Source of the DNA: a virus
Length of the DNA stretch: 64,000 nt
Strand: one strand, 5' to 3'
IMG/VR virus record: IMGVR_UViG_3300033144_006256
Coordinates: 1 to 64,000 of that record
Shown here: positions 3,236-51,348 of the stretch, piece after piece
How the letters are laid out: each line of letters opens with the position of its first letter
How positions within the stretch are numbered: the stretch's first letter is position 1
The notes under the pieces: model-generated
The model's input: the letters and a program-made list of their open reading frames with translations, nothing else
Databases searched by the model: none
What the model was told of the DNA's origin: nothing
Program-made: the position numbers and the translations under genes

Positions 3236-4846
3236 ATGGGTAATATACTTTCATCAGATCAAGATGCTAATAAAATTTATAAACATAGTGGGTTTTCATC
3301 TTCAATAATTGATAGTTTTTCAGTAATTGATGTCCGTGGGATAACAGCGGATAATGATTATATATATTCAGCGGATGATGCAAGTAATAAAATAATAAAA
3401 TATTCAGGTTTTTCAAATACAATTTTAGATAGCTTCACATCTCCAACTGCAATTCCTTGGGGAGTTACTGTTGATAATAATTATTTTTATAGTTCTAATT
3501 ATAATAGTCAAGATATTTATAAATTTTCTGGATTTTCTTCAACAATTTTAAATAGTATAAGTCTTACATTCGCTGCTGCAGATATAACAGTTGATAATAC
3601 TTATATATATGCAGCAGACCCTGCTAATGATAACGTATTTAAAAATTCATTATTTTCATCAAATATATTAGATAGCTTTTCTGCCCCAGCTGGGGCGACA
3701 ACTGGCTTAACAAAAGATAATAATTATTTTTATACATCTAACAGTGCTGATGACAAAATTTATAAACATAGTGGATTTTCAAGTACTGTATTAGATAGTT
3801 TTTCATCTCCAAGCAGTGACCCAACTGGATTAACTGTCGCTAACTATTCAGAAAGAGTGACTACAACAACTTCCACATCAACTTCCATTTCCACAAGTTC
3901 ATCATCCACAAGTATTTCTTCATCTACAAGTTCCAGCTCAACTTCTATTTCCACAAGTAGCACGAGTATTTCCACGTCAAGCAGTTCCACAAGTATTTCT
4001 ACATCTACAAGCAGTTCAAGTACTTCGGTTTCAACTTCTAGCAGTTCAACTTCCACAAGTTCCAGTAGTATTTCAACATCTATAAGTACTAGCAGTTCCA
4101 GCACATCAATTTCAACATCTTCAACATCGGTTAGCACATCATCAAGCAGTATTTCCACTAGTTCATCATCAACGAGTATCAGTACAAGCAGTTCCAGTAT
4201 TTCCACTTCCATTTCCACAAGTTCAACTTCGGTTTCCACATCTTCAAGTTCTACATCTATTTCTACTAGCAGTTCCAGTATGTCCACAAGCATTTCCACA
4301 TCATCAACTTCTATTTCAACAAGTTCAAGTTCGGTTTCTACAAGTATTTCAACGAGTAGCACCAGTATTTCCACATCTTCAAGCTCAATTTCAACGAGCA
4401 TATCAACTAGCAGTTCATCAACATCAATCTCAACTTCAAGCAGTAGCACTAGCATTTCATCTTCAACAAGTTCATCATCAATTTCTACAAGTATTTCCAC
4501 CAGTTCTACATCGCTTTCCACATCTTCCAGCTCAATAAGTACCAGTACTTCAACCTCCAGCAGTTCAACTTCCGTTTCCACATCTTCATCATCAATTTCT
4601 ACAAGTATTTCCACTAGCAGTTCTTCAACTTCGGTTTCTACATCGTCCAGTAGCACCAGTATTTCTTCAAGCACGAGCAGTTCGTCCACAAGCATTTCCA
4701 CTTCAAGTTCTTCAACATCGGTTTCAACATCGTCCAGTAGCACTTCAATTTCTAGCTCTACTTCGTCCAGTAGCACAAGTTTAACTACAAGTATAACAAT
4801 ACCATTTGTTAAAGGACGAACATCACTTATATCAGCATTTAGCTAA
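3236..4846 (+). CDS. Beta-propeller-like repeat domain plus Ser/Thr-rich stalk; paralog of its neighbours
   Basis: Same KIYKHSGFSS.ILDSF repeats, a S/T tract of roughly 300 aa, and the shared SLTTSIT C-terminal motif. Confidence 0.7.
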   Translation: MGNILSSDQDANKIYKHSGFSSSIIDSFSVIDVRGITADNDYIYSADDASNKIIKYSGFSNTILDSFTSPTAIPWGVTVDNNYFYSSNYNSQDIYKFSGFSSTILNSISLTFAAADITVDNTYIYAADPANDNVFKNSLFSSNILDSFSAPAGATTGLTKDNNYFYTSNSADDKIYKHSGFSSTVLDSFSSPSSDPTGLTVANYSERVTTTTSTSTSISTSSSSTSISSSTSSSSTSISTSSTSISTSSSSTSISTSTSSSSTSVSTSSSSTSTSSSSISTSISTSSSSTSISTSSTSVSTSSSSISTSSSSTSISTSSSSISTSISTSSTSVSTSSSSTSISTSSSSMSTSISTSSTSISTSSSSVSTSISTSSTSISTSSSSISTSISTSSSSTSISTSSSSTSISSSTSSSSISTSISTSSTSLSTSSSSISTSTSTSSSSTSVSTSSSSISTSISTSSSSTSVSTSSSSTSISSSTSSSSTSISTSSSSTSVSTSSSSTSISSSTSSSSTSLTTSITIPFVKGRTSLISAFS

Positions 4847-14111: not shown

Positions 14112-15260
14112 ATGGAAAAAGGAATAAAATATAGGTTATATCCTAATAATAAACAAAGAATATTATTAGAAAAACATTTTGGTGCTACAAGATGGTTATA
14201 TAATTATAGTTTGAATAAAAAAATAAAACTATATCAGAGAAGAAACAAGTCGATAAGTTGTTTTGATTTAATAAAAGAAATCCCTAAATTAAAAGATGAT
14301 AGAGAATGGTTAAAAGAAGTTAATTCGCAATCTTTACAGATGGAATTACGCCAACTAGATAATGCTTTCACAAGATTTTTTAGAGAGAAAAAAGGGTTTC
14401 CAAATTTTAAATCAAAGAAGAAAAAAAACTCGTTTAGTATACCACAAGGTAATAGAATAGAAGATAACAAAGTTTCTTTTATAAAGATTGGTAGTATTAA
14501 AGCTAAAATAGACAGAAAATTTGATGGGAGAATAATAAAAGCAACAATAAGTAAAAATAATATAAACCAATATTTTGTTTCATATATTATAGATACCAAT
14601 AATATATTAGAGCATACCAGAAATATCAATAAGAAAACAACTGTTGGGATTGATTTAGGGATAAAACACTTTGCTATTCTATCAAGTGGAGAAAAAATTG
14701 ATAATCCGAAATTTTTAAGAAAATCAGAGCAAAGATTAGCCATTCTTCAAAAAAGATTAAGCAAAAAGAAAAAAGGTAGTAACAATAGAATAAAAGCAAG
14801 ATATAAAGTAGCTAAAATACATAACAAAATATCAAATCAAAGGTCGTATTTCTTACATAATCTAACTTCAAAGCTAACCAACGATAACCAAGTTGATACA
14901 TACGCTATTGAAAATCTAAACATAAATGGAATGATAAAGAACCACTGTTTAGCAAAATCAATTAGTGATGTTAGTTGGGGCGAATTTGTAAGGCAATTAT
15001 CTTATAAATGCAAATGGTATGGCAAAAATCTATTAACAATCGGTAGATTTGAACCAAGTAGCAAAATGTGTAGTTGTGGGTATATAAATAAAGAATTAAA
15101 ACTTTCAGATAGAGAATGGGAATGCCCAGAATGTAAAGTAACCCACGATAGGGATATACTTGCATCGAATAACATTAAAAAATTTGCATTACAAAATCAA
15201 AACTTAATAAATAATTCACCGTTGTTGAAACGGGTAGAGCCTGTGGAGCTGTCGCATTAG
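14112..15260 (+). CDS. tnpB: RNA-guided endonuclease TnpB (IS200/IS605 family)
   Basis: N-terminal KYRLYP HTH; RuvC D/E/D intact (GIDLG, IENL, HDRD); CSCG..CPEC zinc finger. Confidence 0.95.
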   Translation: MEKGIKYRLYPNNKQRILLEKHFGATRWLYNYSLNKKIKLYQRRNKSISCFDLIKEIPKLKDDREWLKEVNSQSLQMELRQLDNAFTRFFREKKGFPNFKSKKKKNSFSIPQGNRIEDNKVSFIKIGSIKAKIDRKFDGRIIKATISKNNINQYFVSYIIDTNNILEHTRNINKKTTVGIDLGIKHFAILSSGEKIDNPKFLRKSEQRLAILQKRLSKKKKGSNNRIKARYKVAKIHNKISNQRSYFLHNLTSKLTNDNQVDTYAIENLNINGMIKNHCLAKSISDVSWGEFVRQLSYKCKWYGKNLLTIGRFEPSSKMCSCGYINKELKLSDREWECPECKVTHDRDILASNNIKKFALQNQNLINNSPLLKRVEPVELSH

Positions 15261-17882: not shown

Positions 17883-17911
17883 TTGACAAAAAATAAAATA
17901 TTTTGTATAAT
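17883..17911 (+). promoter_or_regulatory. Sigma70-type promoter for a probably leaderless tnpB mRNA
   Basis: TTGACA-17 nt-TATAAT, with ATG (17918) 6 nt after the -10 box; same geometry as cassette 1. Confidence 0.75.
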
Positions 17912-17917
17912 ATAGAT

Positions 17918-19042
17918 ATGTGTAAGAGTTATAGAATAAAGTTATATCCTAACAATATACAAAAACAAGAATTATTAAAATATGCTGGTGCTTGTAGATT
18001 TGTATATAATTATTTTCTTGATAGAAAGAAAACTGAATATTTAAAAAATAGTAAAAATATCCCATATAATAAACTTTCAAAAGAATTAGTAGTTTTAAGA
18101 CACAATACAAGTTGGCTAAAAAATATACCGTTTGTCCCACTCCAACAATCATTAAGGAATTTAGATACTGCATATAATAAATTTTTTAGGAAACAAGCAA
18201 AATTCCCAAAGTTTAAAAGAAAATATAGTAGGCAATCAATAAGAAAAATTAATGGGTGGCATATAAAAAATAATAAGATAGTTTTTTCTAAAGAATTACA
18301 TTTGAAATTTAGGGGTAGAATTACAGAAAACCCAGTAGGCACTTTAACTATATCAAGGAATGCAATTGGAGAATGGTTCGCCTCTGTAATGGAAGATATA
18401 GAAGTTAAAAAAGTAAAGTTAAAAGGCAATATAGGAATTGATTTAGGTATTAAAGATTTGGCTATAACAAGCGATGGCGATAAATACAAGAATTGCAAAC
18501 CATTAAAATCAAATTTAAAACAATTAAGAAAGAAATCAAAAATACTTTCTAAAAAGAAAAAAGGAAGTAATAGAAGAAAGAAAGCAAGATTTGAATTAGC
18601 AATATTGCACAATAAAATTAGTAATATAAGGAATAATCATCTTCATCATACTTCAAAAGCGATTGTTAGCAAAAACCACGCGATAATTGCATTAGAAGAT
18701 TTGGCGGTTATAAATATGATGAAGAATAGAAAACTATCGCAAGCAATATCAGATGTAGGTTGGGCTGAATTAGTAAGGCAAATTACATATAAACAAAGTT
18801 GGATAGGTGGAAAAGTAATCAAAATTAACAGATTTTTCCCTTCATCGAAGACTTGCTCCAAGTGTGGATTTGTTTTAGATAGTTTGCCATTAAATATTAG
18901 AGAATGGCAATGCCCAAAATGCAAAGCAAAACACGACCGCGATGTTAATGCTGGTAAGAATATCTTATCGCAAGCATTAAAAACCGCTAAAAATATTTTA
19001 AAACAAGGGGTTGCGGAACTGCCCCGCGTGGAGAGCAGATAA
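17918..19042 (+). CDS. tnpB: RNA-guided endonuclease TnpB; likely start ATG 17918 rather than TTG 17903
   Basis: SYRIKLYP HTH; RuvC D/E/D intact (GIDLG, LEDL, HDRD); CSKC..CPKC zinc finger. Confidence 0.95.
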   Translation: MCKSYRIKLYPNNIQKQELLKYAGACRFVYNYFLDRKKTEYLKNSKNIPYNKLSKELVVLRHNTSWLKNIPFVPLQQSLRNLDTAYNKFFRKQAKFPKFKRKYSRQSIRKINGWHIKNNKIVFSKELHLKFRGRITENPVGTLTISRNAIGEWFASVMEDIEVKKVKLKGNIGIDLGIKDLAITSDGDKYKNCKPLKSNLKQLRKKSKILSKKKKGSNRRKKARFELAILHNKISNIRNNHLHHTSKAIVSKNHAIIALEDLAVINMMKNRKLSQAISDVGWAELVRQITYKQSWIGGKVIKINRFFPSSKTCSKCGFVLDSLPLNIREWQCPKCKAKHDRDVNAGKNILSQALKTAKNILKQGVAELPRVESR

Positions 19043-38453: not shown

Positions 38454-39008
38454 ATGAAACTACAAAAATTTCTTAAAAAAGATATACAAGAAGCATTTAA
38501 CCTTAACCAAGAACTTAAAAAATATGTAGAAGGAACAACACTTTTCTATCTGCAAACAGGAAGAATATCAAAAATAATTCGCGATAATAAATATTATCTT
38601 GCCTTAGATGAAGAATGTAAAACATTTAATCAATACATCGCTACATTAGGAATATCACAAGGGCATATTTATAACTCTATAAGAATTTATGAAAAATGGG
38701 TATTAGAATATGGATATAATGTAGACGATTTAGCAGAAGTCCCATATTCTAAACTGTTAATGATAAGCCCGATTACAACAGCAGAAAATAAAGATGAAAT
38801 GCTGGCACAAGCAAAAGTATTATCCAGATCTGATTTAAAACATAATATAAGTGGAGAACAAGGGAAAACAGAAGATTGCTATCTTGCTAAAATAAATTTT
38901 GAAATAGTATGTGATAAATATCAGAATGGAAATTGCACACTTAGAAATGAACCTTGTAAACAAGAACAGAAGATTTTAAATATTGTTAATAATAAAGAAA
39001 TAAAATGA
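38454..39008 (+). CDS. Hypothetical DNA-binding protein
   Basis: TFNQYI..LGISQ..IYNSI HTH-like segment. Confidence 0.4.
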   Translation: MKLQKFLKKDIQEAFNLNQELKKYVEGTTLFYLQTGRISKIIRDNKYYLALDEECKTFNQYIATLGISQGHIYNSIRIYEKWVLEYGYNVDDLAEVPYSKLLMISPITTAENKDEMLAQAKVLSRSDLKHNISGEQGKTEDCYLAKINFEIVCDKYQNGNCTLRNEPCKQEQKILNIVNNKEIK

Positions 39009-39391
39009 AGAAAAAATTAACAACACAGCAAAAAATAAGAAAGCTACAAAAAAAGGCAGATAGTTTATATCATCAAATAATTTGTAAAAGATTTCCAAAA
39101 TGTTTAGTATGCGAAGTTAATGATAGCCAATGTGCTCACCACTTTGTCAGGAAAAGCCAGTCAGCAGAATTACGCTATAATTTTTCTAATGGGATAAATA
39201 TCTGTGCAAAATGCCATACACTACATCATAGAACAGGCGATCCTAGAATACACGATACAATTATAAGAAAAAAAGGCACAAAATGGGCAGATGAACTTTA
39301 TAAGATTAAAAATAAAGTTAATAAACAATACAAAGGTATTGAATATTACGAAAATATAATTAGTAATTTTGAAAGAATATTAAATGAATAA
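39005..39391 (+). CDS. NinG/Rap-like HNH nuclease
   Basis: CxxC, CAHH, LRY..N...C..CH motifs. Confidence 0.75.
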   Translation: MKKKLTTQQKIRKLQKKADSLYHQIICKRFPKCLVCEVNDSQCAHHFVRKSQSAELRYNFSNGINICAKCHTLHHRTGDPRIHDTIIRKKGTKWADELYKIKNKVNKQYKGIEYYENIISNFERILNE

Positions 39392-44190: not shown

Positions 44191-44720
44191 TAAATTAAAT
44201 AAATATGGATAAGAAATTAATATACAATTATAAAGAATTATACGACCCATTAGATGATATTACTTTTAGTTCAGAACTGCTAATCAGAAAATTAAATAAA
44301 AGAGAATACCTCAATAATGATGAAAGAGAATTATTGATAGAAGCAATTGAAGTGTGCGTTAATCTTTTAAAATGTTAGATTATATTATTGCAATTGGGTT
44401 ATTAACTTTATTTTTTGGAAGTATTTTAGCTGTAATTTTAGGGGGGGGGTAAAATGGATAAGCAAGAAATGAATATAAAAATAATGACAGATTATCGCTT
44501 AGCATTAGAAGAAATATTTAGAAATGTTAGAAATTTAGACGAAGATAGATTAGTAGAATTAGATATTAATAGTGCCTTTTTAAAAGAAGAAGAAATACAA
44601 TTAGTTTGGAAAAGTATTTTCAAAAAAAGAAGAAGATAATAAAAGGAGGCATAAGTTGCCTCCTTGACTTTTTCATAAAAAAAGCGTATAATTACAACAT
44701 AAACTATAACGGTTATAACT

Positions 44721-45587
44721 ATGAAAATCAATCAAATAAAAGTTTGTAAAAGGTTTAGAAAAGATCTTGGTGACTTAGAAGAATTAAAAAAATCAATTAA
44801 AGAAATAGGGCTTTTACAACCAATAGTTGTTGATGAAAATAATAATTTAATAGCTGGACAAAGAAGATTACAAGCATTTAAAGAATTAAGTATCACTGAT
44901 ATAGATGTGAATATAATAAAAATAGATAGTAGTTTAAAAGGTGAATATGATGAAAATGTTATAAGGAAACAATTTACACCGACAGAGGGGGTTAAAATAT
45001 GGGAAGCAATGAAAAGTTATCAGGGGAAAAATCAATATACACAAGAGGATGTGTCCAATTTGGACACAAGCAAAAAAAGAGATAGGGCAGCTAAAGCAAC
45101 AAAGATAGGAAGAACAAATCTTTCAAAGGCAAAACAAGTTATAGAATATGGGGATAAGGATATAATAAAAGAAATGGATAAAACCGAGAATATTAGTGGA
45201 GCATACAGTAAAATTAAAACAGCAAAAACACTAGCAGATATTGAACAACAAAAAAAAGATATAGCAAGTGGCAAAATAAAACTTCCAGAAGGTGTATTTG
45301 AAAATATAGTTGTAGATCCGCCTTGGGATTACAAATCAGAATATAATGCAGAAACACGAAGATCAGCTAATAAATATCCACCAATGACGTTAGAAGAAAT
45401 AGAAAATATTAAATTACCATTAGCGGATGATTGTATATTATGGTTTTGGACAACACAAGCATTTATCTTTGAAGCTAAAAGAATACTTGATAATTGGGGT
45501 TTTGATTATAAAGGAATGTTAATTTGGGATAAAGGGCAAATGGGTCAAGGTTATTGGCTAAGAATGCAATGTGAGTTCTGTGATTAG
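44721..45587 (+). CDS. ParB-N domain fused to MT-A70-type adenine methyltransferase, C-terminally truncated
   Basis: GLLQPIVV..LIAGQRRL (ParB); VDPPW, Y..M..EEI and WGF.Y...IWDK (MT-A70); stops just after QCEF. Confidence 0.8.
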   Translation: MKINQIKVCKRFRKDLGDLEELKKSIKEIGLLQPIVVDENNNLIAGQRRLQAFKELSITDIDVNIIKIDSSLKGEYDENVIRKQFTPTEGVKIWEAMKSYQGKNQYTQEDVSNLDTSKKRDRAAKATKIGRTNLSKAKQVIEYGDKDIIKEMDKTENISGAYSKIKTAKTLADIEQQKKDIASGKIKLPEGVFENIVVDPPWDYKSEYNAETRRSANKYPPMTLEEIENIKLPLADDCILWFWTTQAFIFEAKRILDNWGFDYKGMLIWDKGQMGQGYWLRMQCEFCD

Positions 45588-45897
45588 ATTTTTTAAACAA
45601 GGGGTAAATGCATCTGATTTATTTAATGGTAATTATTTTAATACAAGAAGATTAGCTTTAAATAAACCAGCACCAACAATTACAAAAACTAAAGCATTAT
45701 TACATCCGACAGAAGACAGATGGCTTACAATAGAAGAATGTAAAGCTATATCAACTTTCCCAAAAGATTTCAAATTTATTGGCTCATATAATAACCAATG
45801 GGCAAGAATAAGGAATGCTGTTATGCCAAAATTTATGGAAGCGATTGCGTTACATATTAAAAAAGAAATATTAGAAAAATACTATGAAAACAATTAA
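45571..45897 (+). pseudogene. C-terminal fragment of a C5-cytosine DNA methyltransferase
   Basis: PAPTIT, HP..DR.LTIEEC..I.TFP..F and Q..(I)RNAV.P (motifs IX/X); no N-terminal FxGxG or PC motif. Confidence 0.8.
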
Positions 45898-46374
45898 CCT
45901 TATATGCCAACAATGTGGCACAAAACTATTAAAACAACCACAGAACATAAATAAGAGGCAACAACCTTTTTCTACTTGGTATAATGGCTTTTGTGATGTA
46001 TGTGGTAAAGAAAAAACAGTGACTGAAAACCGTGATTTTGGCTATTTAAAAGAAAAAAATGATTAACTATAAAAACAAATATCCATTATCTACCCTTAAT
46101 ACTTAATAAAATAACAGATATAGAAATAATGGGTAATAATCATTCAACAGAGCAAGGAATACAATATAAGCATATTAGAAACGCAATTAATAATATAATA
46201 GAAAGTTAAAAAATATGAAAACTAAAAAACCTTGTCCAAGTTCAAAAATCCGTTCTAAAGGTAAAGGACGTGGGTTAGGTATAGGAAAAGGTAAGGGACC
46301 GATAGGAAGAAGAAAATAACTTATAACCTGTTATAACTTTAATAAATTAAAAAAAACATATAGTAAAGGATAAA

Positions 46375-46530
46375 ATGCCTACTGTATCAGAAGAAAAGAA
46401 AAAAGAATATTTAGCACTTATAAGAAGATTATTAGTTATGAATCCAAATATAACTGTTTTAGGTATTCAATCAGCATTAGAAAATAGTAAAAATAGTTTT
46501 AATCGATTTTTTTATAAAAATATGTTATAA
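46375..46530 (+). pseudogene. Orphaned 5' part of the terminase small subunit gene (51 aa)
   Basis: MPTVSEEKKKEYLALIRRLLVMNPNITVLGIQSALENSK aligns with the N-terminus encoded at 47301; has an AAAGGA RBS. Confidence 0.8.
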
Positions 46531-46607
46531 TATATTTATAGGGACGAGAAATATTTTTTATGCCTGCCAATGGCTCGTCCCTGAGGTAGGCTTTTAAGTA
46601 TATTATT

Positions 46608-47296
46608 ATGCCATCAGGAGTTTATAAAAGAAGTGAATTAGAAAAAAATAGATTATATAATAATCTAAAATATAGTATTAGGGTTGGTATGACTGGCAAA
46701 AAGCATTCAGAGCATTCAAAAAAGAAGATGAGTAATTCTAAATTAGGTAAGCATTATTCGACAAGGACTGAGTTTAAAAAAGGTAACCCACCGTGGAATA
46801 AAGGCAAAAAATTATCAGATGAATATAGAAAAAAATTAAGTGAATCACATAAGGGGTTGCAATCTTATTGGAAAGGCAGAAAAAGAGGAGCGATGTCAGA
46901 TGAATGGAAAAGAAAAATATCAGAAGCTAATAGGGGGGGGCTAAAGGGAACGCTTGGAAAGGTGGTATAACAAAAAAACATTTTGCAGAAAGAAATAATG
47001 TTGAAATTAAAATTTGGAAGGCTAATATTTTTAAAAAATATAATTGGTCTTGTAGAAAATGTGGTAAAATAGGTGGTAGGTTGCAAGCCCACCATATATA
47101 TAATTTTTCTAGTCACATTAATTTTAGATCTAAGATTGATAATGGTATATTACTATGCAACGAATGCCATAAAGAATTTCATAAAATATATAAAAGGGTA
47201 AATAATAATATAGAGCAAATAGATATTTTTATAAATGGTTATAATACTATAAAACAGTTTTTAAGGGATAATTATAAAGAAATATTTTGTGATTAA
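46608..47296 (+). pseudogene. NUMOD3-HNH homing endonuclease, frameshifted at a G8 tract
   Basis: NUMOD3 repeats (GKKHSEHSKKKMS). After 46933-46940 another frame reads AWKGG..CRKC..QAHHI..NGILLCNECH. Confidence 0.8.
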
Positions 47297-47300
47297 AAAT

Positions 47301-47792
47301 ATGCCAGCATATAGTGAAGAGAAAAAAAATCAATTTATGGAGTATATTAGAAGGCTATTAGTTATGAGTCCTAATATTTCTATTTTATCAATACAAGAAT
47401 CTCTTGAAAAAAGTAAAGGGATAAGGCTAGATAAAGATTATATACATAAACTAAGAAACAAAATATTTGCAGAAAGAGCGAATAGGTATAATTATTATAC
47501 TATAAAAAAATTGTTGCCAGAATATAGTGACGAAATAGAAATAATTAAAAGTAGATTGTGGAGCATATTAAATAACAAAGATGCTGAAGATAGAGATAAA
47601 ATTAGGGCTCTAAGTGAAATAAGAAATTCAAGTAAAGATTTACTAAACGCTATGGCTGATGCTGGCGTATTTACAAGGGAGATAGGAAAACTTGATACTG
47701 GTATGGCTGAAATAGTAAAGATGATTAAAGAATACTACCCTAAAAAAGAAATAAAGCCAGAAGATGTGCCAGGTGAAGCACCGCAGGAATAG
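47301..47792 (+). CDS. Putative terminase small subunit
   Basis: Helical N-terminal HTH-like region, DKIRAL..I motif, position upstream of terL. Confidence 0.55.
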   Translation: MPAYSEEKKNQFMEYIRRLLVMSPNISILSIQESLEKSKGIRLDKDYIHKLRNKIFAERANRYNYYTIKKLLPEYSDEIEIIKSRLWSILNNKDAEDRDKIRALSEIRNSSKDLLNAMADAGVFTREIGKLDTGMAEIVKMIKEYYPKKEIKPEDVPGEAPQE

Positions 47793-48462
47793 TGTTAGAA
47801 GCCCCAAAATTGCGTTCTAAGGGGTTTTAAAGTAAAAAGTAATTATAATATACATTATGGAAAAAGAAACATTTGATGCAATAAGAATAATAATATCTTG
47901 TTTTGGCTTATCTGTCGCAATAATAGGATTTTTTTATGGAAGTAATCACAGGATATACAGGGTTTATGGTTTTTAATGCTTTGGCTATATTCGCTTGGAG
48001 TATTTATTTAAGAAAAATTTATATTGAAAATAAGTAGCTTATCTAAGCCAAAAGTGCTAATTCTATGGGGGGTTCATTTTACATAATAGTTAAAATATGA
48101 AACAAGAAGATTGGCAAAAAATATAAGGTTTATTAGAAAGGCAAAAAAATGAAAAAACATAATCCATATAAACTAACTATAGAAAAAATAGAAAACGGCT
48201 TTTTGCTAACCCATAATGAACAACTTGACGATGATTGGGTAAAAGAACGCAAGGAAGCAATCATAGAAGATGATGATGAAGAAAAAGAAATAGTAGCAGT
48301 GCTTCAACAAGTAGCTGAATATTTTGGTATTTATAATAGCAAACATAAAGAAAGAAATTTAGAGATAGGATTTAAAAAAAATTGATAAAGTATTTGATAT
48401 AGTATATTGTTTTAGAATGATTAAAATTATTTGGTGAATATTGGGATAGTATGTGGTATTAA

Positions 48463-48535
48463 GCAGATGTAGTTTAACTGTTAAAACTATCATTCCAACA
48501 AAATGATTTTAGCGGTACAACTCCGTTCATCTGCA
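48463..48535 (+). tRNA. Degenerate tRNA-like cloverleaf (Gly-like body, identity uncertain)
   Basis: Acceptor GCAGATG/CATCTGC, D stem GTTT/AAAC, anticodon stem ATCAT(T)/(A)ATGAT, T arm AGCGG-TACAACT-CCGTT; loops non-canonical. Confidence 0.55.
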
Positions 48536-48568
48536 CAGGTTTTTTAACATTAAATAAAGGAGGGAATA

Positions 48569-49063
48569 ATGACAATAATACCAGTAGTAATTATTGTATT
48601 AAAGAAATGTAACCATTTTGTATTAGTAGTTAATTCAACTAAACTCAATGGAAAAGCATTCCCAGGTGGTAAAATTAAATTTGGTGAAACAATAAGAGAA
48701 GCAACAATGCGTGAAGCGAAAGAAGAATTAGGTATTGATGTTAAGGTTGAAAGAATAATCGGGTATGGTGAAATGATAACAGCTGGATATGCAGGTGATA
48801 GAAAATATTTATCATATGCAGAACTAAACGCACTGCCAGAAACACAGAAAAGAAATTTTATTAATCCGTGTAGTAAAAAACATTATTTATTCTATACAGT
48901 CCTTTGTTCAAAGAAATTTAAGAATAGCAGAGTAGTATTGAATGAAGAAGCCACAGAATGTTTTTGGGTCACAATTAATGAGTTAGAAGAATGTGGGTTA
49001 AATGGAATTTGGGAACAGCCGATAGGACACATTAAACAATCAATGTTTAAAAATCCATATTAG
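48569..49063 (+). CDS. Nudix hydrolase
   Basis: Nudix box GGKIKFGETIREATMREAKEELG. Confidence 0.92.
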   Translation: MTIIPVVIIVLKKCNHFVLVVNSTKLNGKAFPGGKIKFGETIREATMREAKEELGIDVKVERIIGYGEMITAGYAGDRKYLSYAELNALPETQKRNFINPCSKKHYLFYTVLCSKKFKNSRVVLNEEATECFWVTINELEECGLNGIWEQPIGHIKQSMFKNPY

Positions 49064-49733
49064 TTCTTTATCAAATAAGAAATATGGTATAACTGTTAAA
49101 AGAATACAAAGATTTTGTTTATAATACTTCCAATATTCTTAAAAGGGGGCGGAATGCTAATGATGCAATATCCGCCCCAAAATACTAATATTTCCAAGTA
49201 TTATTTAAGGTTTTGTTATTAGTTTTATACTTCCGATACAAACTTCGCTACGCTCGTTGCTTTTGTATAAAACACCCTTCGCTACGCTACGGGGTTTTCT
49301 ATCAAAAGCGGTTTTCTTTTTTCTATAATCTTTTCTAAACTTTTTCTTTATTGTTTATATTTATCTGCTTAGTGTTGGCATAGTTATCCCATAGCGATAT
49401 TTAAAAAAATATAACCTTATAATGCCTTCTGTGGAGTTTTTCTAAAGACTAAGTTACTATCCTTAAACAAATGTTACAAAAAAAATGTAAATTTGGCGGC
49501 CTCTTTTCCTATATTACCATTGGATAGCATCCCATTTCGGAAAGGTCGTGCTTTTGCACACATAGAGTATTGATTTTGCTGATGCAACTATCACGCTTTA
49601 GAATTAAGGAGGAGTGGTTACCTTCAAGTATGCTCTCCCCACAGGATTAACAAACTATATCATATGTAGTAGGGTGATTAGATAAAAGCACATAAGCACA
49701 CTTACTTTATCTTATTCGTTCCCTACATTTTAC

Positions 49734-49844
49734 AAGCAAAAAACACCCAATAAAGGGTGTCTGATGCAATGAGATATAATATTTTACCAATTTCTTGGCA
49801 TACAAATTTGTCGATAAAATTGTAATTTATATTATATTCCATTA
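49734..49844 (-). ncRNA. Putative structured small RNA, copy 2
   Basis: Minus-strand promoter TTGACA(49878-49873)-17-TATAAT; homologous to 25563-25672 with compensatory changes. Confidence 0.6.
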
Positions 49845-49878
49845 ACCATATTATAATTTACTTTTAAAAAATTGTCAA

Positions 49879-51348
49879 ATGGATAAACAAGAATTAGAAA
49901 ATATAGCAGAGTCACAATTAAATTTTAGTGAATTTATTAAAAGAATATTCTCTAAAAGTTTTGATAAATTTATCGGTGGGCAATACCCAACAGATGTTGC
50001 TAATTTTATGCAATATTATCACGATAAAGGGAAAAATACGATTAGAATATCAGCAAGGTTGCACGGAAAATCAACTTTTATTTATGCATATATAATGTGG
50101 CTAATATTCAGAATGGATAAAGATTTATCCATTATTTATTTTTCATATAGCGGGAAAATGTCCGCATACCATATAACTAAGATAAAAAAACTAATACAGA
50201 ACAATCCATACTTTAATGAACTTATTGATTTAAAACCAACAGCAGAAACACTAATGGCATATAGGTGGAAGAACAGCAAACACGAAGTAACAGTTAACCC
50301 ACAAGGGCTATTAGGGTTTAAGCGAGGTTTACACAGCTCAGTAGTTATTATAGATGACCCATATTCTATTGACAAAGAAATTGTAAATGAAGTAGTAAAC
50401 TTTTCAAATGTTGCCAAAATAAATAATATTATTAAAGCACAGGTGTTAGATATACCATATGTTGATGGCGGTGAAATACATATAGTTGGCACGCCATTTT
50501 CAAATGATGATGTGTTTTTTGATAAAGAATTAAGAAAGATGTTTGCATTCTGGCAAGCCCCAGCGATTAAAGATGAAAAGAATAAAATAGCATTATGGCC
50601 TGAATATATGGATTGGGATGAATTAATGAAAAGGAAAGTAACCAGAAGTAATTTTTTTGCCCGTGAATATCTTTGCCAGCCGATAATTGCAAGCGAAGGG
50701 TATCTTACAAAAGAACAAGTATTAAGTGTAGTTGACGATAGCTTAACAAATAACGATATTTATGATATAATGACAACGCCTGCAAATACAATAGCAGGAT
50801 TTGATATAGGAAAGAAGCTACACCCATCAGCAATAACTGTCCTTAGATGGGATGGGACAGCTTATAAAGAGATATACAATAGATTTTTAGATAATTGGGA
50901 TTATACAAATGGCGGAGAATTTGACCCTGATAATCCAACACAATTAGAATTATTAAAACTTGTAGTAAAGAATTTAAAAGTTGATATTTTATACTTTGAT
51001 AATACTCGTGGGGAATTTGAAGCGTTTATAGAAACACAGAGCTTGCCACAACAGGCAATCCCAGTAGTATTTTCTTTAAAAGAAAAAACAGCTATGGCAA
51101 TGCATCTTAGCAATGCCATAACTGAAAAACTAATTTTAATACAAAACAAACAGAGATCTATCAACAGTTTATTATCTGTTATGAAAGATTTACAATCAAT
51201 AGAAACACCAGAAGGTCACGGGGATATGTTTTGGGCAATGGCATTGGCTGCAAAAGCCCTTTATGAAATACACCCAAGAGAAGGTGGGGCAAAAGTATCC
51301 ACAGGTTCACCATCAATAGTAGATGGCGAAATACCGAAAGGATACTAA
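49879..51348 (+). CDS. terL: Terminase large subunit
   Basis: Walker A ARLHGKST, Walker B VIIDD, VGTP coupling motif, nuclease motifs GFDIG and HGDMFWA. Confidence 0.9.
   Translation: MDKQELENIAESQLNFSEFIKRIFSKSFDKFIGGQYPTDVANFMQYYHDKGKNTIRISARLHGKSTFIYAYIMWLIFRMDKDLSIIYFSYSGKMSAYHITKIKKLIQNNPYFNELIDLKPTAETLMAYRWKNSKHEVTVNPQGLLGFKRGLHSSVVIIDDPYSIDKEIVNEVVNFSNVAKINNIIKAQVLDIPYVDGGEIHIVGTPFSNDDVFFDKELRKMFAFWQAPAIKDEKNKIALWPEYMDWDELMKRKVTRSNFFAREYLCQPIIASEGYLTKEQVLSVVDDSLTNNDIYDIMTTPANTIAGFDIGKKLHPSAITVLRWDGTAYKEIYNRFLDNWDYTNGGEFDPDNPTQLELLKLVVKNLKVDILYFDNTRGEFEAFIETQSLPQQAIPVVFSLKEKTAMAMHLSNAITEKLILIQNKQRSINSLLSVMKDLQSIETPEGHGDMFWAMALAAKALYEIHPREGGAKVSTGSPSIVDGEIPKGY

Follow-up and report, generated by a model that had tools for sequence, protein, structure and literature searches.

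The IMG/VR virus record IMGVR_UViG_3300033144_006256 is a metagenome-derived viral contig of 84.6 kb (about 80% complete), whose first 64 kb, the whole stretch of DNA that was analysed, are referred to here as the window. At positions 46365 to 47792 on its plus strand, the beginning of a gene that probably encodes the small terminase subunit (terS) is present twice, and a nuclease gene of the NUMOD3-HNH type lies between the two copies. Read in the 5' to 3' direction, the locus comprises the motif AAAGGA, a 51-codon open reading frame (ORF), a −10 promoter-like site, an inverted repeat, an ORF with NUMOD3 repeats, a frame with an HNH domain, and a gene of 163 codons.

The AAAGGA motif (46365–46370), read from the sequence, resembles a Shine-Dalgarno (SD) site and lies 4 nucleotides (nt) before the ATG of the 51-codon ORF (46375–46530 including the stop codon). 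The first 39 codons of this ORF (46375–46491) are homologous to the N-terminus of terS and appear to stem from a diverged terS allele (the relic); the last 12 codons are unrelated to terS. The homology of the two copies ends at 46491 and 47417, which defines a left junction at 46491/46492. The presumably imported DNA begins with the bases 46492–46522 and continues into an extended −10 promoter-like site, TGTTATAAT (46523–46531), which overlaps the stop codon of the relic ORF. There follow a conserved leader with two mutually exclusive helices and a mini-ORF (46538–46594), the N-terminal part of the HNH gene with three NUMOD3 repeats (46608–46970, stop codon of this frame at 46968–46970), and its C-terminal part with the catalytic domain in the −1 frame (46934–47296, stop codon at 47294–47296). 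The frame changes in a homopolymer of eight G (G8, 46933–46940). The working terS (47301–47792, 163 amino acids [aa]) is intact; its first 39 codons (47301–47417) are the copy homologous to the relic, and its ATG lies 4 nt after the HNH stop codon and lacks a comparable SD motif. An earlier interpretation made from the letters alone (the sequence-only reading) had described a relic with its own ribosome-binding site, a promoter, a NUMOD3-HNH gene, and a second N-terminus at this locus, and all four elements are confirmed.

The homology between the relic and the N-terminus of the gene at 47301 is unambiguous. Of 40 aligned residues, 24 are identical and 31 similar (expectation value [E] 1e-15, pairwise BLASTP), and the match recurs in an all-ORF tblastn comparison of the window with itself (E 3.7e-14) and in a search of the whole 84.6-kb record (E 2.4e-10). 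The all-ORF comparison yielded no second relic/gene pair of this kind in the window; the remaining matches are paralogous gene or repeat pairs. At the DNA level, 78 of 117 bases (67%) are identical, and the 39 differences are distributed 13/8/18 over the three codon positions. The two copies are direct repeats 926 base pairs (bp) apart, and their similarity ends sharply past codon 39. The final 12 codons of the relic ORF show no significant similarity to terS; a MAFFT alignment hinted that they might be a deleted continuation of the gene (codons 62 onward), which was rejected because 54 of 500 shuffled sequences scored equally well. The upstream piece is thus a truncated terS start, and the second N-terminus belongs to the working gene, with which it continues as an intact ORF; both had been proposed in the sequence-only reading.

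The pattern of substitutions points to an origin of the two copies in different lineages. Synonymous sites are near saturation (proportion of synonymous differences [pS] 0.69), the proportion of nonsynonymous differences (pN) is 0.25, and the ratio of nonsynonymous to synonymous substitution rates (dN/dS) is about 0.15, so that most of the divergence arose while both copies encoded working proteins. A stump of 39 codons cannot diverge under coding constraint, and the copies must therefore stem from different lineages, which agrees with the earlier description of the two as diverged alleles. This also argues against a tandem duplication of the terS start in place, after which the copies would have diverged and the HNH gene would have entered between them. 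Duplication could in principle produce direct repeats at this distance of 926 bp, but the truncated copy could not have diverged as long-functional coding sequence, it is not degraded, and there is no relative with two copies. Each of the five relative records that were searched in full contains a single terS copy and no second N-terminus; relatives that lack the HNH gene and nevertheless keep both N-termini, which would have spoken against an insertion, were not encountered among them. An in-place duplication is therefore the least credible of all explanations considered here.

Only marginally less far-fetched is an assembly artefact, in which the assembler would have joined variants of the terS start from two strains in tandem. 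The metagenomic origin of the record makes such an error conceivable, but copies with 67% identity are too diverged to confuse an assembler. Moreover, the copies are 809 bp apart and separated by unique and coherent sequence (promoter, leader, and HNH gene), and the junctions are located in otherwise normal sequence.

The relic shows no sign of decay, which suggests that it was stranded recently or is still under selection. It contains neither stops nor frameshifts in its 39 codons and keeps the residues that are invariant in the family (M1, S5, E7, and R17). On a profile of the N-terminal region built from 139 family members, with both copies of the window left out, the relic scores 64.2 bits, which is above 90% of the members (mean 53.6, standard deviation 7.6); the working copy scores 59.5 bits. 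The intact frame and the better profile fit, together with an SD-like motif that is present on the relic and absent from the working copy, would also be expected if the relic were a retained small protein of 51 aa that consists of the first two terS helices and serves, for example, as a packaging decoy or regulator, a role compatible with either origin of the locus. Yet 39 codons are too few for their intactness to count much, the ORF continues into 12 unrelated codons, and the product would be without oligomerisation helices and would contain only two of the three helices predicted for the N-terminal domain. Because a protein search also found no short homologue, a retained function is quite unlikely, and the relic appears to be a recently stranded allele of another lineage rather than a decayed in-place duplicate.

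The extent of the imported DNA to the right of the nuclease gene is less clear. The closest other phage (L010, with the same allele as P0002) is as distant from each copy as the copies are from each other: all pairs share 24 of 38–39 aa, with pN values of 0.246–0.248. An apparent affinity of the relic to this phage (a local blastn match of 77.6%) vanished when all 117 nt were compared (69%). When the working terS is compared with that of L010, identity, pS, and pN all pass codon 39/40 without a step. An insertion at codon 39 that replaced only the N-terminus is therefore not demonstrable: only the left junction is defined, at 46491/46492, and on the right side the whole of terS may have been imported. 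Within terS, a 27-nt internal repeat (81%; 47302–47328 and 47515–47541) makes the gene start resemble codons 72–80, which may be due to chance in A+T-rich DNA.

The assignment of the 163-aa gene as terS is probable and is based on synteny and architecture. At E up to 0.01, neither Pfam nor PHROG assigns the gene to a family, and the PDB contains no sequence relative. A profile from ten relatives collects an uncurated family of 568 representative clusters (80 below 1e-30), whose members almost all comprise 150–200 residues and are matched from residue 1. In all seven relatives with flanking sequence, the family member abuts or overlaps a large downstream ORF, which is followed by a portal-sized ORF. 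Three of these large ORFs share 41% identity (E about 1e-120) with the large terminase (terL) of the window (49879–51348, plus strand; PHROG terL, 1.6e-24), that of L009 shares 27% (E 4.8e-11), and that of one further relative has a weak match to Terminase_6C.

An AlphaFold (AF2) model of the gene product, with a mean confidence score (pLDDT) of 69.6, predicts helices at residues 6–22 and 28–39 (short), a long helix at 45–90, and a return helix at 97–120 that forms a hairpin with it, a layout that would correspond to the usual plan of small terminases. The model aligns with the G20c small terminase (Z 7.1, residues 8–118) and equally well with a helix-turn-helix regulator (Z 7.0, residues 5–60), both in the noise range for helical proteins. 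Foldseek returned nothing at E up to 0.001, VIA-align gave Z values of at most 7.9, again in the range expected of helical proteins, and the only Atlas matches are unnamed viral clusters and DUF2280 at 0.90. In this model, the duplicated part covers only helices 1 and 2 of an apparently three-helix N-terminal domain. The suggestion of the sequence-only reading that the swapped terS start alters packaging specificity is possible but would be a weak idea.

The two ORFs between the terS copies are halves of a single gene. Pfam detects three NUMOD3 stretches in the first (1.8e-13), which were seen again in the search of the whole record, and an HNH domain in the second (46934–47293; HNH_2, 1e-5; HNH, 4e-5). 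From its first residue, which lies inside the G run, the HNH frame aligns to the C-terminal module of a 355-aa HNH protein of a Bacillus phage (2e-28), and the catalytic and zinc-binding residues (a CxxC pair, His-His, Asn, and CxxCH) are visible in this alignment. A single ORF of 219 aa in L016 (3617–4273) matches the NUMOD3 part with residues 1–89 (2e-8) and the HNH part with residues 129–217 (6e-23). Because the two ORFs of the window map colinearly onto single ORFs elsewhere, they represent halves of one gene of about 229 codons; one extra G in the G8 run, or a −1 shift, restores a single gene of 229 codons.

Both halves are free of stops, whereas about 9% of the codons over all three frames of this stretch are stops. 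Since the halves are otherwise undamaged, the frame break must be recent or not real; it may be a recent mutation, a sequencing error in the homopolymer, or a slippage-prone site. G runs of at least eight occur twice in the 64 kb of the window (0.04 expected). The other one, a G9 run at 44441–44449, encodes the Gly-rich end of a small, hydrophobic product; the ATG of the following gene comes 4 nt later, so that the run may also serve as its ribosome-binding site. A programmed −1 frameshift at G8 was rejected because the sequence downstream folds into no stable structure (z = +0.95); slippage may still occur within the run.

The combination of NUMOD3 repeats with an HNH domain is the architecture of homing enzymes, and the gene appears to be free-standing. 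Neither a group I intron nor a ribozyme was detected: Rfam models matched nowhere in the window at gathering score, and nowhere in the region 46000–50000 at E up to 1; only 116 nt of non-ORF sequence are available for such an element at the locus, and intron splicing is not needed because the working terS has its own complete N-terminus. Homologues of the HNH protein are scattered over unrelated positions in unrelated contigs, and the presence of the gene among related genomes at the same locus is sporadic: none of the seven relatives with flanks (L001/L005, L004, L006, L007, L008, L009, and L011) carries it at the terS locus. Comparison with known phages yielded no matches, as DNA or as protein, to the locus, to terS, or to the NUMOD3 part. 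Another small HNH-domain ORF without NUMOD repeats (39005–39391, 128 aa; Pfam HNH, 9.6e-4, which by itself is below the cut-off) is located 8 kb upstream of terS.

These observations also bear on the notion that the nuclease works with terminase as a packaging accessory, like HK97 gp74, and was acquired together with a new terS as a functional module rather than as a selfish element. Its position directly upstream of terS, which starts 4 nt past the HNH stop codon, would fit such a role, and some of the weaker HNH-domain relatives adjoin terS in Latilactobacillus phages; the HK97 case is discussed in PMC10448857. However, the terS loci of the relatives have no HNH gene, three NUMOD3 repeats are typical of homing enzymes, the closest full-length homologues reside in replication or other modules of unrelated phages, and the gene is out of frame in a phage that keeps terS and terL intact. 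A packaging role is therefore very unlikely.

The nuclease gene is preceded by regulatory elements of its own. The TGTTATAAT motif occurs 20 times in the window (10.7 expected), and its excess makes this site alone weak evidence for a promoter. More informative is the 57-nt leader, which is 80.7% identical to positions 3861–3915 of L070, an unrelated viral contig of 45 kb (E 1.8e-8 in 721 kb of loci). The copy in L070 is located immediately 5' of another NUMOD3-HNH gene and is preceded by a perfect TTGACA-N17-TATAAT; both this promoter and the TGTTATAAT site before the leader of the window are of the sigma-70 type. No member of the terS family is present in the L070 contig, and the two nucleases have NUMOD3 repeats in common (43%), while their HNH domains are barely similar. 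The recurrence of promoter and leader, together with the Pfam matches, substantiates the earlier claim that the intervening gene is of the homing type and has its own promoter-like site, and it supports the idea that the promoter and leader belong together with the nuclease gene as one module, which may move between unrelated phages.

The leader can form two mutually exclusive helices, S1 (46540–46548/46574–46582) and S2 (46562–46568/46585–46591). The differences between the window and L070 keep both helices paired (C-G to U-A in S1; U-A to C-G and G.U to G-C in S2), and the two states are of near-equal energy in each case (−15.2 vs. −14.0 kcal/mol in the window, −19.4 vs. −22.3 kcal/mol in L070). 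The G+C-rich inverted repeat at 46540–46582 is unique in the window and did not occur in shuffled sequences. A pseudoknot of S1 and S2 was rejected because its 2-nt linker is too short for a 9-bp helix, and the two are read as alternative helices. The leader also contains a mini-ORF of nine codons (46560–46589), whose version in L070 is in frame with the nuclease gene; four of the five differences are synonymous, and with two examples of the leader, a constraint on the RNA is not separable from one on the peptide. Three pattern scans of IMG/VR yielded no copy beyond that in L070. The leader has no Rfam match, and known phages gave only two chance-level matches, to the L070 copy (E 6). Frame 2 of 46493–46594 stays open over 34 codons and was considered as a possible donor gene 3' end; this was rejected because the homologous sequence of L070 contains a stop. 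A promoter-leader module with competing helices that travels with different NUMOD3-HNH genes would be a candidate for the expression control of such selfish genes.

In view of the anatomy of the locus, a relic that is foreign and still fresh, the architecture of the HNH gene, its absence from relatives, and the recurrence of promoter and leader, the locus is probably the scar of a terS allele replacement associated with a homing endonuclease, that is, of one-sided homing with a non-homologous left junction (probability roughly 0.55). In this history, we infer that there was a break, where it fell, which enzyme made it, and in which direction DNA was transferred.

According to this reading, a diverged relative would have carried the self-contained cassette of promoter, leader, and NUMOD3-HNH gene immediately before its terS. 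During a co-infection, the HNH-less terS of the present lineage would have been broken near codon 39–40, with the HNH-bearing genome serving as template for the repair. On the right side, this repair would have run through the homologous terS and copied leftward the start of the donor terS (at least 39 codons, possibly the whole gene), the HNH gene, the leader, and the promoter. On the left side, where there would have been too little homology (67% over 117 nt), the end would have been joined non-homologously just upstream of the cassette promoter, which would have stranded the ribosome-binding site and the first 39 codons of the recipient as a 51-codon ORF. The HNH gene would later have gained a frame change in the G8 run, or shows one through a sequencing error, and has no other damage.

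The resulting arrangement would be self-protecting, since the presumed target is incomplete in the relic and a third of the bases are different in the working copy; a resistance of the new terS copy to cleavage had already been proposed in the sequence-only reading. The relic could also act as a left homology arm for further homing into relic-type alleles. One-sided homing would account for the sharp left boundary, the foreign and undecayed relic, the nuclease as the only gene between the copies, and the position of the junction close to the promoter. The junction is about 30 nt upstream of the −10 site and 116 nt from the HNH start codon, so that the imported DNA starts almost exactly with the cassette.

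The main rival is an ordinary illegitimate recombination of two diverged phages, with the left parent broken in its terS, for example at a pac cut or at a random site, and the HNH gene as a passenger that was already located upstream of terS in the right-hand parent. The structure of the locus defines only one non-homologous junction, the HNH gene is out of frame, and the surroundings are plastic: the upstream region has been rearranged as well, with a truncated MT-A70 gene followed by a C-terminal fragment of a C5 methylase, and an insert of 2.1 kb separates terS from terL. Against a passenger speak the closeness of the junction to the HNH start codon and the −10 site, the homing-type nuclease as the sole gene between the copies, and the mobility of the module of promoter, leader, and HNH gene among unrelated phages. 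That nuclease genes occur at exchange boundaries is, moreover, documented: homing endonuclease genes cluster near terminase genes and at the boundaries of genetic exchange among phages (PMC10448857), with which one-sided homing agrees. Passenger recombination is therefore unlikely, if still a serious competitor.

The notion of a cassette that homes repeatedly goes further. It would interpret 46492–47417, with its promoter, two-state RNA leader, NUMOD3-HNH gene, and recoded terS 5' end, as a mobile element that repeatedly enters terS of naive phages at codon 39/40. The recoded 5' end would confer immunity to its own nuclease, the relic would be the left homology arm in later rounds, and the G8 run would be a slippage-prone on/off switch that limits expression of the nuclease. 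Such an element would be a phage counterpart of the mitochondrial mORFs (see below) that acts at the 5' end of genes, and it could reshuffle the DNA-recognition end of small terminases between phages. In this full form, the scenario is unlikely.

Several points weigh against the one-sided homing reading. The structure is known from a single instance, and the relic has no equivalent beside other NUMOD3-HNH genes (none of five loci: L070, L016, L014, L015, and L018). The HNH gene is split over two frames as assembled, so that its reading frame is not intact, and cleavage of a naive allele by its product is a prediction from sequence. The right-hand junction is invisible, and donor and recipient roles are not assignable from the sequence. 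The assignment of terS combines synteny with a structural model of medium confidence. Finally, an uninterrupted, HNH-less allele that joins a relic-type N-terminus to the present C-terminus, which the sequence-only reading had suggested to look for among related phages, was not found in searches for longer or shorter proteins, in a search of IMG/VR with the relic ORF, in a metagenome scan, or in two genome scans.

The neighbourhood of the locus shows further signs of rearrangement. Although terS and terL abut in relatives, they are separated by a gap of 2086 bp in the window. The insert (47793–49878) comprises small ORFs, a tRNA (48463–48535, 45.6 bits), a gene for a NUDIX hydrolase (48569–49063), and about 800 bp of non-coding sequence. 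The non-coding stretch (49064–49878) carries on its minus strand a perfect TTGACA-N17-TATAAT (49878–49850) and a terminator-like hairpin (49762–49741). The closest terS relative, L010, is also without a terL directly downstream. On the other side of the locus, in the region 44721–45897, a gene with ParB_N and MT-A70 domains ends at profile position 78 of 172. It overlaps by 17 nt with a sequence in another frame that encodes only the C-terminal 80 residues of a C5 cytosine methylase (profile positions 243–324 of 324). At the same place, L001 has a ParB gene, then a full C5 methylase gene, and then terS. The methylase pair in the window resembles the product of a deletion joining two methylase genes, or another replacement scar.

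If one-sided homing is the correct reading, the locus would be a rare preserved intermediate of homing between diverged phages, in which the kept piece of the replaced allele marks the rough site of the break and the extent of one-sided co-conversion. It would then suggest that, even where homology is weak, free-standing phage nucleases can invade if one join is homologous and the other is not, and that such an invasion rewrites the start of an essential packaging gene. For the uncharacterised NUMOD3-HNH enzyme, the reading predicts a target in terS around codon 39–40 of relic-type alleles. Should it fail, the locus would still represent a clean case of mosaic recombination at a boundary marked by a nuclease gene.

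Among phages, the closest parallels are free-standing homing endonucleases such as SegF, SegG, and MobE of T4, which promote intronless homing with co-conversion of flanking markers. Like these, the gene described here lies between essential genes, has its presumed target in the neighbouring gene of nuclease-less relatives, and would have carried along a diverged flank. By contrast, classical intronless homing is resolved by homology on both sides and leaves no duplicated gene fragment, whereas here one side is non-homologous and a piece of the replaced allele is kept; cleavage and exclusion would be predictions here. The position next to the terminase genes is shared with cases surveyed in PMC10448857. 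The gene resembles the HNH genes of the HK97 gp74 type in its location directly upstream of terS but differs from them in its lack of conservation among relatives, its NUMOD3 repeats, and the frame break in the assembled sequence.

The same genome also harbours two paralogous TnpB genes (14112–15260 and 17903–19042, 42% identical), which are located in the tail operon between tube, tape-measure, and distal-tail genes. The parallel that the sequence-only reading drew with these TnpB cassettes holds for position, in that a selfish nuclease gene occupies the 5' end of an essential late gene, but is loose and does not extend to the mechanism: the terS locus has a diverged coding copy, a repeat of 117 nt at 67% identity, recognition would be protein-guided, and the insertion mechanisms likely differ.

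To our knowledge, the combination of relic, endonuclease gene, and working gene is known from fungal mitochondria and not from phage packaging genes. The closest precedent is provided by the mitochondrial mobile endonuclease ORFs (mORFs), in which an endonuclease ORF brings a replacement 3' end of a gene and leaves the native end behind as a relic, with a nucleotide identity of 64–81% between the copies (PMC3630166). Such hybrids have been described for atp6 of Allomyces macrogynus, atp6, atp9, cox2, and nad3 of Glomus sp., atp9 of Rhizopus, and cox2 of Mortierella (PMC3630166). As in mORFs, an endonuclease ORF is accompanied by a diverged copy of a gene end, the imported copy works, and the native relic remains beside it. 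The endonuclease ORF is flanked by the two copies, of which one runs on into the working gene while the other is truncated, and their DNA identity of 67% is within the mitochondrial range. In both systems, protein identity is said to stand in a relation to DNA identity that points to transfer from another lineage, the former being much above the latter.

There are also clear differences. Whereas mORFs replace the 3' end and leave the relic downstream, the phage locus has an exchanged 5' end and an upstream relic with its own ribosome-binding site. The enzymes of mORFs belong to the LAGLIDADG or GIY-YIG families, are often fused in frame, and reside in organelle genomes, whereas that of the window is a free-standing NUMOD3-HNH protein with its own promoter and leader in a tailed phage. 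For mORFs, the native copy was matched to a close relative without the endonuclease, whereas the collections searched here contain no close relative to which a native copy could be matched. With these differences in mind, the terS locus is best explained as a putative phage counterpart, so far in one example, of the mitochondrial mORF hybrids, in which the replaced part would be the 5' rather than the 3' end of the gene.

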